From contig QIDH01000057.1 of the NCBI GenBank assembly GCA_003229305.1, positions 1,702-65,701 of the forward strand: a stretch of 64,000 bases of DNA, written 5' to 3'. Source of the DNA: Acidimicrobiia bacterium. Its GTDB lineage: Bacteria; Actinomycetota; Acidimicrobiia; Spongiisociales; Spongiisociaceae. The notes under the pieces are model-generated. The model searched no databases and was not told where the DNA came from. It saw only the letters and a list, made by a program, of their open reading frames with translations. The position numbers were made by a program, and so were the translations under genes. Shown piece after piece: positions 35,201 to 41,632 of this stretch; within the stretch, counting starts at the first letter, position 1; the number at the start of each line of letters is the position of its first letter.

Positions 35201-35348
35201 CTGGGGCGATGTTGTGCTCGGTCACCAGGGCAGCCACCCGGTGAGCGACGGTGGTCGTCTTGCCGGTCCCGGCGCCGGCGGCCACTCTGAGAGGGGCGAG
35301 CGGGGCGTTGATGATGGCGGCCTGCTCTGACGAAGGCGTGAAGGTCAT
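32235..35348 (-). CDS. adnB: AdnB-like UvrD helicase with C-terminal PD-(D/E)XK nuclease
   Basis: AGAGTGKT, TFTNKAA, DEYQD, GDLDQTIYEWRGA, TVHRAKGLE, YVAVTRA, GRIDA..VDFKSG. Confidence 0.88.
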   Translation of the reverse strand: MTFTPSSEQAAIINAPLAPLRVAAGAGTGKTTTVAHRVAALVTEHNIAPGRILGITFTNKAAFELTDKIRTVLGAADPSESVEIHTYHGFASQLLADHGALVGVERSAQIITPTFGRQLLFEAIRRAEFSTVDITARRHIIPALLKLESDLSDNLKTAQDLISATPDQPDEIMVQRREMAGALRNYQAYKKALDVLDYGDLVRLAYRLVSEFSEVANSVAGRYQSVVLDEYQDTNPAQRLLLQSLFTDGAIITAVGDLDQTIYEWRGASLGNFRDFPKHFPNEDGSQAATLPLSVNRRSGRLILDVANAVRLNISDGGGTPLVPHKDNPSAAVAAAWLRTAGDEANLIADEARRLHDDGFAWKDMAVLFRKNKDIALVRDAMDDHEIPVQVANLGGLLGIPEIVEIHAWLRLIASPEDGPALARLLSGTRYRLGMVGLKALTDWAQARSKTDPYAVDHEAVPAHTLVEALDNVDELNLDEDIRSRLREFADTYLELVTLAQGVALIELVRQILTVTDAWNEIDAMPEAARLSARLNVYRFLDLAEDWSPLEGRPSLEAFLAYLSLMMEEEIEELDTARVGTDDAITLLTVHRAKGLEWPVVFIPAVYHNNFPSRVRSFDDPYARPAVLPDDLRLDRDERPRIGPDMDVKERRAILRAAHEDQEWRLAYVAVTRAQQHLILSGASWYGNPEPNMRPVKPSALLELVRGLEHVTTAAWIDDPQDRPPVVRASVPGPGPDPHFGMSWDAAMRATITNPSWTRTRAESLGVTGPYDDAVDEFQTMLFSLPESEGSADRPDPITRASVTGLVTYATCPKRYFWSEVDRLPRRPSTAARRGVELHRKIEIHNRGNIPLDDIDEIVYDTTPDGRDDAEASTAGRPNAFKVFKTSRFGTVLPVHVEMPFDLRVSEGVWVRGRIDAIYPHSENGWEVVDFKSGRNRNDPAATVQLQAYAMAVTAPGFSAAPPDPLKVTFAYFGDGLDEVSQDVDGEWLENAQDRLGELFGGIEAQDWTPTPSPACHHCDFQRFCEPGKEWVAANSD

Positions 35349-38300
35349 CGGACGAACGCCTCTCGTCCTTCTGGCCATTCCGGGCAAATGAGTTTCACAG
35401 TGCAGCGATTGCAGTGGCGGTTGGGTGTTGCAGGCCATTCTTCAGCCGAGATCCCGTTGGCGATCTCGACCAGACGTTCACGAACCATTTCGACGTTGGC
35501 CGGGTCGAATCTGATCGGTTTCGGAGTTTTGAGCGGATACCAGAATTCGGCCTCGCTCACATCGCCGTGCACGGTGATCTCTGGGTCTTGCGCCGCGGCG
35601 AGCATGTAGAACCCCAGTTGGAGTGACTCGGCTGCATCCTTCTGGGTGGGGGTGGTCTTCGAGGTCTTGTAGTCGACAATTCTCAGCCCGCCTGGGCCTT
35701 TTTCGATTCGATCGGCGATTCCTCTCCAAAGCGTGCCATCGATATCCAACTCCAAGTGGCGCTCGAGCAATACAGGCTTCGCGTCCGGCTGAGGCCAAGC
35801 TTCGTACAGCAGATCGAGGAGCAGATCGGCCCGTCGCCGCCAGGCCGCCTGCCAAGCCCCCTCACCGAAATCATGTTCGGCGAATATCTGCTCAAGGGCT
35901 GACGCGGCCTCGAGCCGGTTGGACCTGCGATCGTGATCGTCCAGCGCTCGGGTTTCGGCCAATTCGAGGACTTCGTGGATCATCGAGCCGAAGGTGGCGT
36001 ATGGCGACCCTGAATCAGCAATGTGGAGGCGGCGCTCCATTGCGTATCGGCGCGGGCAGGTGGCGTAGGAATCTGCCTGAGATGGCGACAAGGCGAGACT
36101 TTCGGGCAGAATCCCTCGATCGATACCCCTGTCTCGCACCATGGTGAACTGATCGGCCGGACGCATGATGGGCAGCGGCGCATCGACCAATACCTGCACG
36201 GCAGCGAGCCGCTGGTGCGGCGGTCGGTGAGGATCGGTGAGGATCGAACGCAGTATTGCCTCAGCCTCGCCCACTGTGACGGGTTCGCCATCCTGGGCCT
36301 GCGGTGGACCCAGCGCGGCCGCGTCATCGGCGCCGGCCACCATCGCCAGGAAGCGACTCGGTCGTTTCTGCCCCTCGTCGATGCCTGCGCTGGTGGCGGT
36401 CCACACGACCCTGGTCTTGGCTCTGGTCATCGCCGTGTATGCGAGGCGCATTTCCTCCTGGAGGCGGAGGCGGAGGGACTCGGCTGGGTCGGCGCCCGCA
36501 TCACCGAGATGCTCGGTCGCGAGCAGGGAAGCCCGCTGCCGAAGATCCGGAAACACGCCTTCGACCGCATCTGCGATGAACACGACGTCGAACTCCAGGC
36601 CCTTCGATTGGTGCAAGGTCGTGAGCGTGATCTGGTCGCGACTCGTCGACGATCGGCCAAGTAGCGGCTCGGCTTCTATGTCGTCTGCGTCTGCCCTGCG
36701 GACGAACTCGATGAGAGTGGCCTTGGGGTCACGTTCGTTCAAGCGACCCAGTACTTGACTCAGCGACGTCCAGGCCGCCCGGTATCCGGCGCGCTCTGGG
36801 TCGAGCACCAGGTTGCCGATCTGGGGAACCGAGGTCCAAATGTGCCAGAACGCCTCGGTTGCTGGTTGGTCCAGCCAGTCGGCGTCGGCGATGAGGGAGG
36901 CGATTGGCTGAGCTTGGGGGAGCTCGGCAGCCAAAAGATCCGGCCATGCTTGGCCGCGCCGAATCCTGGATCTCGCCAGTGAGCGCTCCTCGGTTATTCC
37001 CACGGCCAGCAACGGGCCGAGGAGTAGGCGCCGTACCGAACGCTCGAACTGGGACTCGATCGGGGTGATGGAGGGGTGGTCAGGTTCGAGTGCCGACAGA
37101 TCGCGGAGGCCAACGGCGGCTCTCACCAAGTCGAACAGAACCTGGACGGCCGGGTGATCCGTCAGCCGAGCGTCTGGCGGTTCGTGGGGTACGCCGCGCC
37201 GGTCGAGCGCCCTCGACAATTCGGGGAGCAACCGGCGTTTGGTGCGAACCAGTACTGCCATCCGGCGGTACGCGACGCCCTGCTCCAAATGCACGCGCCT
37301 GGCCTCGGTGGCGATCCAGTCGGCCTCTTGAGAATGCTGATCGAACACGAATACGTCCACTCTTCCGCTGTGTGGGGCGGGTTCGACTTGGCCGGCCGCG
37401 CCTGGCAGAGCGCCGGAGGAGGTAACTCGTTCCGCTGCCCTGAGAATCTCCGCAGGCACTCGGAAGGAGGTGGCCAGCACTATCCGTCTGGCTGGGTGAC
37501 CGTCCAGGTCCACGAACCGCTCAGGGAAATCCGCGACGTTGTGTAGCTCGGTACCGCGGAAGCTGTATACAGATTGGTAGGGGTCGGCGGCCGCCAGCAG
37601 GTTGCGATGACTCAGAGTCAGGTTGGCGAGTAGTTCTGCCTGGGCAAGGCTGGTGTCCTGGTATTCGTCGACGATTATGTATTCGAACTGGGCGGCTACT
37701 GATCTGGCTACCTCGGGATCGGCCAGGGCACTGACGGCCCGGTACTGAAGCGTCCCGTAGTCGATCCTGTCTGTAGCCGACAGCTCGGCGTCGTAACGAG
37801 CGATGAAGGCCGGAAGGGCGCGCCAGTCGTCACGCCCTGCGGCGAGTTCTGCGATGGCGTGCACGTCGAGTAGCCGTTCGCGGGAACGAAGGATGTAGTC
37901 GGTGACCTCTCCTGCGAACGTTCGACTTCCAAGCAGAGGTTGGAACATCAGCGGCCACTTCTTGGGCTGCTCCGCCTTCAAGAGTTGACCGACGAGGTCG
38001 ATCTGTTCCGGACCGGTGAGGATGGCAGGGTGCTTGCTCCATCCGAAGGCACTCTCGCCGTGCACTTCGAGTATTCGGGAACAGAAGGAATGGAATGTGG
38101 AAGCGGGCACCCCCGAGACCGTCCTGTCTACTTGCGCCAATATCCGCTCTCGGAGGTCGGCCGCGGCTCGGCGCGAGAATGTGAGGGTCAGTACTGATTC
38201 CGGCAGGACCGCCAGCTCGTTTATCAGGTGCGTCGCGCGCCTAACCAGAAACTCCGACTTACCGGCGCCTGGGCCCGCCACGACCAGCTGGGGGCCGCCG

Positions 38301-38386
38301 ACCATGGCGACGGCTTCTAGCCAGTCGGAAGGCATGATCCGCCAATCGGCCGTACGCCTCGCTCGTTCTTCGGGCTGACCGGTCAC
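35345..38386 (-). CDS. adnA: AdnA-like UvrD helicase with C-terminal PD-(D/E)XK nuclease
   Basis: AGPGAGKS, DEYQD, TLHQSKGLE, YTAMTRA, GIADRI..VDYKT; ATGA coupling to adnB; TAGCCT-7nt-GTG. Confidence 0.88.
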   Translation of the reverse strand: MTGQPEERARRTADWRIMPSDWLEAVAMVGGPQLVVAGPGAGKSEFLVRRATHLINELAVLPESVLTLTFSRRAAADLRERILAQVDRTVSGVPASTFHSFCSRILEVHGESAFGWSKHPAILTGPEQIDLVGQLLKAEQPKKWPLMFQPLLGSRTFAGEVTDYILRSRERLLDVHAIAELAAGRDDWRALPAFIARYDAELSATDRIDYGTLQYRAVSALADPEVARSVAAQFEYIIVDEYQDTSLAQAELLANLTLSHRNLLAAADPYQSVYSFRGTELHNVADFPERFVDLDGHPARRIVLATSFRVPAEILRAAERVTSSGALPGAAGQVEPAPHSGRVDVFVFDQHSQEADWIATEARRVHLEQGVAYRRMAVLVRTKRRLLPELSRALDRRGVPHEPPDARLTDHPAVQVLFDLVRAAVGLRDLSALEPDHPSITPIESQFERSVRRLLLGPLLAVGITEERSLARSRIRRGQAWPDLLAAELPQAQPIASLIADADWLDQPATEAFWHIWTSVPQIGNLVLDPERAGYRAAWTSLSQVLGRLNERDPKATLIEFVRRADADDIEAEPLLGRSSTSRDQITLTTLHQSKGLEFDVVFIADAVEGVFPDLRQRASLLATEHLGDAGADPAESLRLRLQEEMRLAYTAMTRAKTRVVWTATSAGIDEGQKRPSRFLAMVAGADDAAALGPPQAQDGEPVTVGEAEAILRSILTDPHRPPHQRLAAVQVLVDAPLPIMRPADQFTMVRDRGIDRGILPESLALSPSQADSYATCPRRYAMERRLHIADSGSPYATFGSMIHEVLELAETRALDDHDRRSNRLEAASALEQIFAEHDFGEGAWQAAWRRRADLLLDLLYEAWPQPDAKPVLLERHLELDIDGTLWRGIADRIEKGPGGLRIVDYKTSKTTPTQKDAAESLQLGFYMLAAAQDPEITVHGDVSEAEFWYPLKTPKPIRFDPANVEMVRERLVEIANGISAEEWPATPNRHCNRCTVKLICPEWPEGREAFVR

Positions 38387-38417
38387 TTGGGCAAGGCTAG
38401 GCGAATGCCTGGTCGGC

Positions 38418-38621
38418 TCAGGCGGCGACCTCGGCCATCGATGGCGTGCTCGATGAACCAAAGGTTGGGTTGGACGGTTCGAAGCTCAGTCCGGCGGCGA
38501 GGAGGTTCGCCTCCGCGGCCGCAAACTGCATAGAGGCGCGCCGGTCGCGTCTCGACGCTCGCAATCGCTGCGTCATGATCGAGATGGGTCCGAGCTGGGT
38601 CTGTCTGCTGGTGAGTTCCAT
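38418..38621 (-). CDS. Small hypothetical protein (67 aa)
   Basis: Fills the gap between bmt and adnA; TATGTT-6nt-ATG leaderless signature. Confidence 0.5.
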   Translation of the reverse strand: MELTSRQTQLGPISIMTQRLRASRRDRRASMQFAAAEANLLAAGLSFEPSNPTFGSSSTPSMAEVAA

Positions 38622-38701: not shown

Positions 38702-39724
38702 CTACGACACGCCGACTGAGCGAGAGCGGCGTCGATTGCGTCTTGCCTGGCCTCTTTCGATCTCATCTGAGACGCGGCCGAGCCGGTCCGAGATCTCTTC
38801 CGTGGTCGGTCGCGGCCCAGAGAGGTCGGCGTCCACCGTGGACCGGATGACGCTGATGTGGTCGAAGCTTGAACCGCAGCATGCTCCGACGATGCGAGCT
38901 CCCGCCCGCACCGCGAGTTCTGTGTAGGCGGCCATGTCCTCTGGGCCTGACGGATAGCTGAGAGCTTCGTCCTTGTAGAGCGGGATGCCACAGTTTCCCT
39001 TCGCAATCACGATCGCGTCCGGGGCGGCGGCGGTGATGGCGGCTGCCGCCTGCACCACGTCTGAGGGTCCGACTCCGCAGTTAGCCCCGATGGCCGTTGG
39101 CCGGGTTTCATGTCCGAGCCACCATTCGCCGATAGATGTCGGGGCGATCCCCATCATCGTGTGCCCGTTGGTGTCGAAACTCAGTGTGGTGACCACTGGG
39201 ATGTCTCGTCCGGACGCTGCCTCGACCGCCGCCGCGAGTTCTTCCCACGACGAGATGGTCTCGATCCACAACACGTCGACGCCCGCCTCGATCAGGGCAT
39301 CAGCCTGTTCGGAGAAGATTCGCACGCCCTGGTCGTGGGTGAGCGGCCCTAGCGGTTCGAACAGCTCACCTGTAGGACCCATCGAGCCGGCGACAGCGAC
39401 CATTCGGTCGGCATCGTCGGCAACCTGCCTTGCGACGCCGACAGCTGCCCGGTTAAGTTCTGCGACCCGGTCCTCGAGCCCGTGGAGCGCCAACCTGGCG
39501 CGGGTGCCGCCGAAAGTATTGGTGAGGACGATGTCCGCTCCAGCTTTGACGTACCCTGAGTGAACTTTGGCGATCAGATCAGGCTGGTCGACGTTGAGGA
39601 GCTCTGGACAACCCCCGCTTTCGAGGCCTAGCTCGAACAGCGCGGTGCCCATCGCTCCATCTGCCACCAGGACCCGCTGCTCAGTCAACAGTTCGGTGAA
39701 TATCGACGGTCCGGCGGTGCTCAT
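38702..39724 (-). CDS. bmt: Stand-alone homocysteine S-methyltransferase domain (Bmt / split MetH type)
   Basis: DGAMGT, TNTFG, AGSMGPTGE, WIETIS, SFDT.G.TMMG, Zn ligands GANCG and GACCG; AAGGAG RBS. Confidence 0.88.
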   Translation of the reverse strand: MSTAGPSIFTELLTEQRVLVADGAMGTALFELGLESGGCPELLNVDQPDLIAKVHSGYVKAGADIVLTNTFGGTRARLALHGLEDRVAELNRAAVGVARQVADDADRMVAVAGSMGPTGELFEPLGPLTHDQGVRIFSEQADALIEAGVDVLWIETISSWEELAAAVEAASGRDIPVVTTLSFDTNGHTMMGIAPTSIGEWWLGHETRPTAIGANCGVGPSDVVQAAAAITAAAPDAIVIAKGNCGIPLYKDEALSYPSGPEDMAAYTELAVRAGARIVGACCGSSFDHISVIRSTVDADLSGPRPTTEEISDRLGRVSDEIERGQARRNRRRSRSVGVS

Positions 39725-39812
39725 ACTGTGACTCCTTGATGGGTCAGCAGCGGTGACGAAAGGAGGCCTTGACGATGCCAGTGCGGCGGATTGCGGATCG
39801 TCGCCTCTAGGC

Positions 39813-39866
39813 GTCGCTTTAGCGGCATTTCGTGAGCGCCCGCAAGCTGACTTCAAATCGGCGCTT
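39813..39866 (-). ncRNA. SAM-II (SAM_alpha) riboswitch
   Basis: AGCGCC-GAUUUG-AAGUCAGCUUGC-G-GGCGCU-CACGAAAUGCC-GCUAAA-GCGAC: P1 AGCGCC/GGCGCU, conserved GAUUU, UUGC and GCUAAA, pseudoknot GUC..GC/GC-GAC; upstream of a methionine-synthesis gene. Confidence 0.85.
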
Positions 39867-39883
39867 ATTCTTATTGTCGACAC

Positions 39884-39889
39884 AGTATA
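39884..39889 (-). promoter_or_regulatory. -10 element for the riboswitch-bmt transcript
   Basis: TATACT about 18 nt upstream of the aptamer. Confidence 0.55.
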
Positions 39890-39970
39890 CCCGCTTCGAA
39901 GCAGTTTTGAGATCCGGGACCCGAGAACGGTGCTGGTGAGCACCAAAGATGGTTCCTACAATCTCGACGC

Positions 39971-41632
39971 ATGTGGGTCGGGGGCCGTTGGTGGAACAGG
40001 GCGTTGTTGGTTTTGGCAGTGCCTCTTTTGGTCGCCCTCTTGGCGTTCGTGGCCTGGTGGGCTGACAGCCTTGGGGCCGACGGCAACGTTGTGCGCAATA
40101 CGGAAATCGATGGAGTCGCAGTCGGGGGTATGAGCGACACCGACTTGGTCTCCGCCGTCGAGGACCTCTCGTCCGATTTGTCCGTGGTCACCGTTCGGGT
40201 TGACCTTGGCGACGACGTCCTGGAGGCTTCGGCGGATAAGCTCGGAATCAGCGTCGATATCGAATCAACCGTCTTGGCTGCGATGGCCGCGGGGCGAGAC
40301 GGTTCGGTCGTCACCCGAGCGGTCGGTTGGATCGGTGCGTTTCGAAACCCGAACGAAGTGTCTGCCCGGTTCTCAATCGATCAGTCGATCGCACGCCGGA
40401 CCATCGAGGCCGACGGGCGTATGGCTGATCGGATGCCGGTCGAGCCGACGATCGAGTTCGATGGCGAACGGCTGGCTGTCGTCGCCGCCGTCCCCGGCCG
40501 CACCCTCGACGTCGACGACATCGTGGAACGTCTGGCTGTCGCAGTGGCGGACGGATTGCCAGACCAGATAAGTTCGCAGTGGGCTCCGGTGCAGACGATT
40601 CAGTCAACCGATCTGGCTACCCGCATGCTCGCCGAGGTGGACCGTCGCACCGACGCCGGAGTGGTCGTCGAGGTACGTGGCACCCAGCGGTGGATCCCAC
40701 CCAAGGTTCTATTTGGATGGATTGGATCCGAGGTCTCCTCAGGTGAACTCACACTCACATTCGAAGACGCCGCGTTGCTCGAGTACGTCGAGGGCCTATT
40801 CGACGACTTCTCGGTCGGGACGATCTCGACGGCGTTCAACGTGGTTGACGGCGTCCCAGTGCTCGGGGACATTGGCGACGACCGAGCAGTCTGTTGCTCG
40901 ACCCTGGCCGTTGACGCGGTCCAACGAGTCGTGAGAGGCGAGTCGTTCGGCGTGGCAACATTGCCGCTTCGTTCGCCCACCATCGACGAGTCGATCTTCG
41001 CCGCATCCCAGTTGGGTATCGTCGAACTAGTCGGGTCATTCACGACGAATTACGTCTGTTGTCAGAGCCGGGTGACCAACATCCAGCGCATCGCCGACAT
41101 CATCAGGGGAGTGGTGCTCGAACCGGGGGAACAGCTTTCGATCAACGGGTTTGTTGGACGTCGTACTACGGAGAACGGCTTTGTCGGGGGAGGGGTCATA
41201 GACAGAGGGCGATTCAACAACGCAGTTGGAGGAGGCATCTCGCAGTTTGCGACCACCATGTTCAATGCTGCTTTTTTTGCCGGCCTCGACATACCCGAGT
41301 ATCAGAGCCATTCGATATACATCAGTCGGTATCCGTATGGTCGCGAGGCAACTCTCTCTTTCCCCGCCCCAGACCTGGTGATCGACAACACCAGCGAGTA
41401 CGCGGTGCTGATTTGGCCCACCTACACCGACACGTCCCTGACGGTCGACATCTACTCGACGAAGTACATCGAAGTCGAGGCCCTCGACTACCGGGTAGGC
41501 AGCGCCCGCAGATGCACAAGAGTGACCTCACCACGCCAGCGCACCTATCCGGACGGAACGGTAGTCATAGACGAGTTCTTCGCCACCTATCGCCCAGGCA
41601 CCGGCCTCGACTGCAACGGAAACCCGACGTAG
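39971..41632 (+). CDS. VanW family protein with peptidoglycan-binding region
   Basis: N-terminal TM; RVTNI, PGEQLSIN, GGGISQFATTMFNAAF, HS.YISRYPYGREAT. Confidence 0.9.
   Translation: MWVGGRWWNRALLVLAVPLLVALLAFVAWWADSLGADGNVVRNTEIDGVAVGGMSDTDLVSAVEDLSSDLSVVTVRVDLGDDVLEASADKLGISVDIESTVLAAMAAGRDGSVVTRAVGWIGAFRNPNEVSARFSIDQSIARRTIEADGRMADRMPVEPTIEFDGERLAVVAAVPGRTLDVDDIVERLAVAVADGLPDQISSQWAPVQTIQSTDLATRMLAEVDRRTDAGVVVEVRGTQRWIPPKVLFGWIGSEVSSGELTLTFEDAALLEYVEGLFDDFSVGTISTAFNVVDGVPVLGDIGDDRAVCCSTLAVDAVQRVVRGESFGVATLPLRSPTIDESIFAASQLGIVELVGSFTTNYVCCQSRVTNIQRIADIIRGVVLEPGEQLSINGFVGRRTTENGFVGGGVIDRGRFNNAVGGGISQFATTMFNAAFFAGLDIPEYQSHSIYISRYPYGREATLSFPAPDLVIDNTSEYAVLIWPTYTDTSLTVDIYSTKYIEVEALDYRVGSARRCTRVTSPRQRTYPDGTVVIDEFFATYRPGTGLDCNGNPT

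Follow-up and report, generated by a model that had tools for sequence, protein, structure and literature searches.

A canonical SAM-II aptamer in the bhmT leader of an Acidimicrobiia genome, with a terminator-like hairpin as its candidate expression platform

How does a riboswitch class described from Proteobacteria and Bacteroidetes come to stand before a methyltransferase gene of an actinobacterium, and by what means might it control that gene? The question is raised by the leader of a betaine-homocysteine S-methyltransferase gene (bhmT) on the minus strand of the 64,000-nt stretch of DNA analysed here (hereafter, the window). In the available text of Corbino 2005 (PMC1273637) and of Barrick & Breaker 2007 (PMC2258182), the range of SAM-II is given as alpha-, some beta- and gamma-Proteobacteria and Bacteroidetes. 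A preliminary description had read the leader as a SAM-II pseudoknot coupled to a relay, in which a separate hairpin sequesters the Shine-Dalgarno (SD) sequence. The explanation that we lean towards, with slightly better than even confidence, keeps the first half of that reading and replaces the second: a canonical SAM-II aptamer in the bhmT leader would repress the gene when SAM is plentiful, and would do so via a terminator-like hairpin.

Leader positions are numbered as p = 39866 minus the window coordinate, which puts the first base of P1 at p1 and the start of the AUG at p142. All the elements named in the preliminary description (TATACT, the aptamer string, CUCCUU and AAGGAG) are found on the minus strand where it had placed them. 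The hexamer TATACT (39884-39889), read directly from the sequence, is a candidate -10 element 18 nt before P1, from which we infer the transcription start. Neither strand has a sigma-70-type site by a consensus promoter scan; by eye, a TANNNT hexamer lies shortly upstream of P1, in a similar place, in all the orthologous leaders printed. The aptamer, AGCGCC GAUUUG AAGUCAGCUUGC G GGCGCU CACGAAAUGCC GCUAAA GCGAC, occupies 39865-39813 (p1-p53) and is recognised both by the Rfam model RF00521 and by a lineage-specific model, R1, described below. The bhmT ATG (39724-39722) follows on the same strand 89 nt downstream of the aptamer, in good agreement with the earlier estimate of about 90 nt, and the SD sequence AAGGAG (39732-39737) lies 7 nt before the ATG and 76 nt beyond P2a.

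A standard Rfam scan of the window at the gathering cut-offs reported nothing. In a permissive scan of 301 nt (39650-39950, matches up to E = 10), SAM_alpha (RF00521) matched at 39874-39796 over model positions 1-79 of 79 with 26.2 bits (E 4e-4 in the 301-nt scan), which is about 10 bits short of its gathering cut-off of 36. The permissive scan yielded four matches, of which the three besides SAM_alpha are weak sRNA families far under their own cut-offs; SAM_V gave no match in the same 301 nt. The Rfam models thus bear out the earlier class assignment in the full-length SAM_alpha match, but not in its score. A SAM-V identity is also at odds with an L3 that is a 10-nt strand with no stem visible by eye, and with an SD sequence 76 nt past P2a.

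We compared the leader with the architecture scheme in the available part of Huang & Lilley 2018 (PMC6061858), which runs from P1 through the third strand, the P2a linker, the P2 descending strand, the P1 3' strand, L3 and the P2 ascending strand to the P2a 3' strand. All 16 defining pairs form in the window. The P1 5' strand AGCGCC (39860-39865, p1-6) makes six of six standard pairs with the P1 3' strand GGCGCU (39835-39840, p26-31), a pairing present both in the window and in the alignment described below. Between them lie GAUUUG (39854-39859, p7-12), the putative triplex third strand, a role assigned by analogy with SAM-V and SAM-II structures (excerpts of PMC6061858); the P2a 5' strand GUC (39849-39851, p15-17), which makes three of three pairs with GAC at 39813-39815; and the descending P2b strand GCUUGCG (39841-39847, p19-25), which pairs as GCUU:AAGC and GCG:CGC with the ascending strand. 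The A-rich linker L3, CACGAAAUGC (39825-39834, p32-41), leads into the P2 ascending strand CGCUAAAGC and the P2a 3' strand GAC (together 39813-39824, p42-53), which are likewise supported by pairing and alignment.

Comparative evidence comes from an alignment of 102 other aptamers, 31 from loci in Acidimicrobiia genomes and 71 from metagenome loci, which leaves out the window, its same-genus twin and one further parsed sequence (L107). In this alignment 85.7% of cells are paired, compared with 81.4 ± 0.5% in shuffles (reached in 0 of 500) and 34-51% with slid partners. The cells of P1 are 93.6% paired, with double-sided changes at the basal P1 pair, and both partners have changed in 7, 28 and 18 of the 102 sequences at the P2a columns 19:61, 20:60 and 21:59, respectively. 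The covariation score is 0.107, whereas 500 shuffles gave 0.049 ± 0.006 and none got as high; no variation is seen in P2b or most of P1, to some extent because of how the sequences were retrieved, the pattern used having fixed the P2b columns in advance. The conserved core (GAUUUG, GCUUGC, the A-rich L3 and GCUAAAG) is complete in the window, and the corresponding alignment columns are invariant or nearly so: A9, T11, T12 and G13 of the third strand are invariant, and the AAA columns of L3 are conserved. R1, the covariance model built from this leave-out alignment, finds the window's aptamer at 39866-39809 with 68.5 bits (E 1.5e-15 over 64 kb), far above what chance would give. Searching the 1.95-Mb, 72%-complete assembly with R1 revealed no second aptamer copy.

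The window thus contains the P1 helix, the H-type pseudoknot P2 and the conserved core, in the 5' leader of a methionine/SAM metabolism gene and in its orientation. Because these structural features are all present, we file the aptamer as SAM-II despite the sub-cut-off score; on its sequence it is a canonical member of the class, with the H-type pseudoknot proposed earlier. The low Rfam score does not reflect a damaged core: a by-eye reading of the cmscan alignment places the mismatches mainly in the flanks, in a linker two bases shorter than that of the model and in L3. We infer, with considerable confidence, that the aptamer binds SAM and represses bhmT. As a separate observation, in runs X2-X4 the summed contig depth rises 10- to 40-fold over the aptamer core only (39810-39866), because contigs of many other organisms, from marine and vent metagenomes, match the core at 80% identity or more; this pattern fits an abundance of SAM-II aptamers in such samples. 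None of the public runs listed as holding the sequence was of RNA.

The regulated gene (39724-38702, minus strand, 340 aa plus stop) encodes a homocysteine S-methyltransferase domain (Pfam PF02574, 217.9 bits) and scores 414.1 bits against the NCBIfam equivalog for betaine-homocysteine S-methyltransferase, NF005718 (cut-off 338). Its closest BHMT relatives are Acidimicrobiia or Acidimicrobiaceae records at 60-85% identity, and a genome of the same genus (G001) carries the leader at 92% identity. The actinobacterial context claimed for this DNA is supported: the host is an Acidimicrobiia genome, an assignment that rests on genome kinship and not on bhmT alone. Downstream lies the gene for a 1038-aa fusion of a UvrD-type helicase with a PD-(D/E)XK nuclease (35348-38461, minus strand), and upstream, divergently, that for a VanW/peptidoglycan-binding protein (39971-41629, plus strand); as both neighbours are unrelated to methionine metabolism, bhmT looks monocistronic.

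In its fold, the aptamer resembles the classical SAM-II of Alpha- and Betaproteobacteria (the metA motif, RF00521) throughout, with the same P1, third strand, P2b, P2a, L3 and core letters, and a pattern that its core fits, the P1 3' strand included, hits at least 119 metagenome stretches, most of them with strong terminators. It differs from the classical examples in its Acidimicrobiia host, in its Rfam score under the cut-off and in its target, bhmT; according to excerpts of Leyn 2014 (PMC4239095), the proteobacterial targets are metY, metA, metX, hom, metC and metW. The target as such has a precedent, since the Pelagibacter bhmT gene lies behind a transcription-terminating SAM-II arranged in tandem with SAM-V, as given in the available part of Smith 2016 (PMC5069961). 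The pairing of SAM-II with bhmT is therefore known, and it is the lineage that is new. Compared by description and not by sequence, the two leaders share a SAM-II before bhmT in a marine bacterium; the window belongs to another phylum and has no second (SAM-V) aptamer. SAM-I (the S box), SAM-IV and SAM-VI of Gram-positives sense the same ligand and serve the same kind of regulon with unrelated folds.

Where in the leader, then, would SAM binding be read out? In the available text of Corbino 2005 (PMC1273637) and Barrick & Breaker 2007 (PMC2258182), many SAM-II copies are described as having a promoter immediately ahead of P1 and a terminator that separates P2 from the ORF. Transcriptional control prevails among SAM-II riboswitches, and a direct overlap with the SD sequence is the rare metX/SAM-V case (excerpts of PMC6061858 and PMC2258182), so the preliminary statement that SAM-II often overlaps the SD sequence has to be corrected: a platform separate from the aptamer is the norm. 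[quoted passage not shown] The window follows the classical layout (Corbino 2005, PMC1273637, in part) in having its candidate promoter a short way ahead of P1 and a hairpin in the stretch from P2 to the ORF, although the hairpin is long, interrupted and poor in its U-run when set against classical terminators.

This hairpin, T (39763-39807, p59-103), GAGGC-GACGAU...AUCGUC-(AAG)-GCCUC, is the most stable element of the platform at -17.6 kcal/mol, and its basal five pairs are GAGGC:GCCUC. It is as stable and GC-rich as the stem of an intrinsic terminator should be. Its tail, CUUUCGUC (39755-39762, p104-111), does not reach five U in eight nucleotides and holds three consecutive U at most, a 3-nt bulge sits near the base of T, and a consensus scan lists no terminator on the minus strand. 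We call T terminator-like, and not a terminator, because it fails the U-run rule. The tail resembles those of relatives (e.g. UUUCUCGU), which exceed it only slightly in U content. Counted from the aptamer, T ends at +50, and the GC-rich terminator stems of most same-family relatives end at +48 to +53; from this position and the likeness of the tails, T looks like the positional counterpart of the relatives' terminator. Under one uniform rule, a stable hairpin followed by at least three U in 5 nt is present in 32 of 39 leaders, a few of which (e.g. L006 and L026) are doubtful.

In the mechanism we propose, the riboswitch turns bhmT off at high SAM. SAM would lock the aptamer, T (p59-103, followed by CUUUCGUC) would form, and transcription would stop or stall. 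Without SAM, the freed L3, P2 ascending and P2 descending strands would capture the 3' half of T by base pairing and keep the hairpin from forming. Another local hairpin contains the SD sequence and may lower translation with or without SAM. The L3 bases p33-36 and p39-41 are complementary to the 3' strand of T, and the 3' side of T at p86-94, UGGCAUCGU (39772-39780), is the candidate antiterminator partner of L3 and the P2 ascending strand: the duplex of p33-43 with p86-94 is predicted at -13.5 kcal/mol. Taken by itself, the window's duplex is not significant (z -0.99; 16% of shuffles do as well). Across the Acidimicrobiia, the complementarity between aptamer strand and terminator has a mean z of -1.68, with 12 of 32 leaders below 0.05, and in classical leaders a mean z of -2.06, with 31 of 63 below 0.05. 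Taken over all leaders, such complementarity of the ligand-dependent aptamer strand with the terminator is enriched.

Modelling of the two states points the same way. For transcripts that stop 0-8 nt beyond T, the pairs of T have a mean probability of 0.11-0.24 when folding is unconstrained and of 0.90 once the aptamer is locked; in the leader L024, the same test gives 0.00-0.05 free and 0.45-0.75 locked. This equilibrium state test, which the window passes, is insensitive, because few of the 14 classical controls shift comparably. Besides the poor U-run and the bulge, two results speak against attenuation: the full-length unconstrained fold re-forms T, and in the natural variant X5 the change A65C breaks one pair of T. 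Three natural versions of the window's platform are known, namely the window, L024 and X5, the last found among contigs and differing at 14 positions, 7 of which are listed, none of those 7 near the SD sequence. U86G, found in both L024 and X5 (U86 in the window), breaks one antiterminator pair. The changes in L024 and X5 are otherwise unpaired or preserved as wobbles in all models and so do not discriminate between them. The plain minimum free energy fold of the whole unconstrained leader is no better than that of shuffles (z 0.40) and does not recover P1, and for these reasons we set it aside. Two anti-aptamer helices, p21-27:69-75 and p22-29:78-84, were considered and rejected as weak when taken alone (-6.0 and -5.9). 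A specific metagenome pattern for the window's platform returned no match; a broader aptamer pattern returned mostly classical SAM-II leaders and none with the window's platform, and a BHMT motif regex found nothing in the 80 stretches retrieved by this broader pattern. Taken together, the models leave control by attenuation through T at about even odds.

The relay of the preliminary description starts from the anti-SD sequence CUCCUU (39760-39765, p101-106), whose first three bases are the last three of T. Here, SAM binding would free CUCCUU and GUCA (p109-112) to pair with AAGGAG and UGAC and block translation; without SAM, the anti-SD would be held in T, itself extended by a GACG:CGUC pairing with the P2a strand. 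The SD hairpin with its inner GUCA/UGAC stem can indeed form, with all ten pairs standard and a predicted energy of -8.1 kcal/mol. When the 75-nt spacer is shuffled with its dinucleotides preserved, 155 of 5000 shuffles contain an exact CUCCUU, so its presence is only modestly beyond chance. T can gain a further 5.2 kcal/mol (-22.8 versus -17.6) if the P2a strand GAC(G) lengthens it, a mini hairpin next to P2a (-3.6 kcal/mol) competes with the base of T, and the L024 changes C101U and A122G keep the relay pairing via wobbles. Two orthologues with short leaders, L032 and L034, seem to sequester the SD sequence and may work in the manner of metX SAM-II and SAM-V. However, the relay hairpin is weaker than its two competitors: T and the local SD hairpin (-17.6 and -10.7 kcal/mol) outweigh the mini hairpin and the relay hairpin (-3.6 and -8.1), T takes half of the anti-SD, and the local SD hairpin excludes the relay hairpin, which folding never chooses in either state. 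The same substitutions fit the rival helices equally well, and no covariation distinguishes the relay from them. Moreover, half of the anti-SD is tied up in T once the aptamer is locked, so that the logic would be SAM-ON, contrary to expectation for an enzyme that makes methionine. As the mechanism at this locus we consider the relay unlikely, and by these models the most likely working platform is the terminator-like hairpin and not the anti-SD relay.

Translation could also be controlled by the local SD hairpin, GCUG-C-UGACCC / GG-A-GUCA-CAGU (39725-39751, p115-141), either alone or together with attenuation, in a dual design like that at Pelagibacter bhmT but with no second aptamer. At -10.7 kcal/mol it is the preferred fold around the SD sequence, whose pairing probability is close to 1, and the L024 changes A122G and C124U preserve or improve its pairing. 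It forms in both modelled states of the window, however, so no ligand dependence is visible, and in L024 locking the aptamer opens it in the model, which is the opposite direction. Furthermore, the dual design lacks its second aptamer here, SAM_V being without a match in the permissive scan of 39650-39950. Ligand control through this hairpin seems to us rather improbable, and attenuation through T remains our preferred reading.

We surveyed related genomes for the aptamer in three samples, several of whose genomes are incomplete. Among relatives, the Rfam model finds the aptamer in 21 of 61 genomes, the window's included: 19 of 28 other genomes of the same family and 1 of 3 in a second family (f4), always before bhmT. 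The score exceeds the cut-off in 16 of the 61, at 36.4-46 bits. In the class sample it is present in 8 of 151 genomes (again with the window's), all of one order (5 of 15 in f4 and 2 of 5 in a third family, f12), and it was not found in the other orders of that sample; in all, three families of one Acidimicrobiia order have matches. The phylum sample gave 3 matches in 151 genomes, the window's included. The two outside the order (L215 and L216) were rejected, as both are within coding sequence and the stretches inspected lack a SAM-II core, and for the rest of the phylum the aptamer was not found in the genomes searched. Its description as atypical for the lineage therefore holds against the range given by Corbino 2005 and Barrick & Breaker 2007, but not within this order, where 19 of 28 other same-family genomes and two further families carry it.

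The aptamer goes together with its gene. A BHMT reading frame follows it in all 39 unique Acidimicrobiia leaders, and within the family of 29 genomes a DNA search with the leader and a protein search with BHMT hit the same 21, while the other 8 have neither. That the element is a decayed or retargeted relic, which has lost SAM binding or turned to another ligand such as SAH, or a chance look-alike under the cut-off, is highly improbable: an Rfam score 10 bits below the gathering cut-off and a silent gathering scan speak for it, and against it stand the intact conserved core columns and defining pairs, a same-genus copy identical to the window across p2-p75 and the perfect linkage with bhmT in the family.

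The gene history was followed in a quick IQ-TREE analysis with SH-aLRT support only. The 39 Acidimicrobiia BHMTs form one clade (SH-aLRT 99), whose sister group lacks the aptamer and comprises 13 rows from Pseudomonadota, Myxococcota and others. At E <= 0.1, SAM_alpha was found at none of 18 non-Acidimicrobiia homologue loci (Pseudomonadota, Myxococcota, Chloroflexota and Flavobacteriales), so no donor cassette was found. Co-presence and co-absence together with the single clade indicate one heritable, dispensable unit, and we have shown that the aptamer is inherited as a unit with bhmT across an Acidimicrobiia order. The BHMT of the window's genus falls among other Acidimicrobiia MAGs (SH-aLRT 97), apart from the 19 sequences of the same family: either the cassette has travelled within the class, or taxonomy and gene history differ. 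In pairwise comparison, the window's BHMT shares 53-58% identity with its counterparts in the family and 60-75% with those of other Acidimicrobiia MAGs.

The preliminary expectation that actinobacteria typically use SAM-IV or SAM-I/IV does not describe this family. SAM-I exceeds the Rfam cut-off in all 29 genomes (G000-G028), with one or two copies each, SAM-II is present in 21 of the 29, and SAM-IV was not found in the 5 genomes tested. In five single-contig genomes (G002, G008, G015, G019 and G020), SAM-I and SAM-II lie on one chromosome. According to an excerpt of Barrick & Breaker 2007 (PMC2258182), the two classes had not been met together in any one species; our literature search on SAM-I and SAM-II in the same genome returned nothing that revises this statement, which is thin evidence that their coexistence is unreported. 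The SAM-II-bhmT unit looks like an accessory module added to genomes with a resident SAM-I sensor.

The window's genome has two SAM-I riboswitches, with 74.2 and 64.4 bits, at G000:C29:867-957(-) (L224) and G000:C21:2208-2294(+) (L222). One of the two lies about 270 nt before a gene for a 173-aa OsmC-like protein (PF02566, 63.5 bits), and the other 20 nt before that for a 369-aa protein without a Pfam match, an unexplained member of the SAM regulon. G002 carries SAM-I at G002:C1:1464874-1464956 and 2403512-2403594, one of which precedes an ORF that is OsmC-like by eye. osmC is among the Pelagibacter genes downstream of SAM riboswitches named in the available part of Smith 2016 (PMC5069961).

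A broader scenario can be offered as a speculation that we hold tentatively. Marine Acidimicrobiia with SAM-I may have acquired a mobile SAM-II-bhmT unit once, probably from a proteobacterial donor, and so come to hold two unrelated sensors per cell; in the window's genus, the inherited terminator would have been remodelled as a long hairpin with interruptions, three bases of which also belong to an SD complement, such that one ligand-dependent fold could gate both transcription and translation. If this were true, each sensor would serve a separate branch of sulfur and methyl metabolism, with SAM-I before OsmC-like and unknown genes and SAM-II before bhmT, and the early observation that no species has both classes would be contradicted.

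The locus extends the documented range of SAM-II into Actinomycetota. Our literature search returned no paper that brings SAM-II and Acidimicrobiia together and, judged by title, none on SAM-II or SAM_alpha in Actinobacteria; Figure 5 of McCown 2017, which sorts classes by phylum, may already mark it, and automatic annotation may already flag the relatives that score over the Rfam cut-off. The SAM_alpha cut-off misses diverged copies like the window's, and a lineage-aware model recovers them. Understanding of how SAM-II works is unchanged by this aptamer. What is worth following is, first, its portability with bhmT, the two being present or absent together in 29 of 29 family genomes, and, second, the coexistence of two SAM sensor classes: these chromosomes provide a clean natural case, useful for asking why a cell should keep sensors with different affinities or kinetics for one ligand.

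Several side observations were made on the metagenome and homologue sequences. Ten metagenome loci (L102, L105, L121, L123, L144, L158, L168, L170, L172 and L173) carry a classical SAM-II with terminator followed by a second core that by eye is SAM-II/SAM-V-like (GAUUUGA...CAGCUUG/CAGAUUG...CUAAAG); these are probably tandem SAM-II plus SAM-V arrangements as described for SAR11. Three BHMT matches (G003:C34:41604-42587, G021:C2:4167668-4168660 and G017:C31:38622-39620) contain one TAG each inside the matched stretch, either because the alignment overruns the stop codon or because the frame is really interrupted. Finally, matches to Rfam PYLIS_3, the model of the mttB pyrrolysine insertion element, lie beside five BHMT homologues (L043-L046 and L062) of Myxococcales and Alphaproteobacteria, four of them over the cut-off, which suggests that MttB-family methyltransferase genes adjoin bhmT there, in a betaine demethylation neighbourhood.
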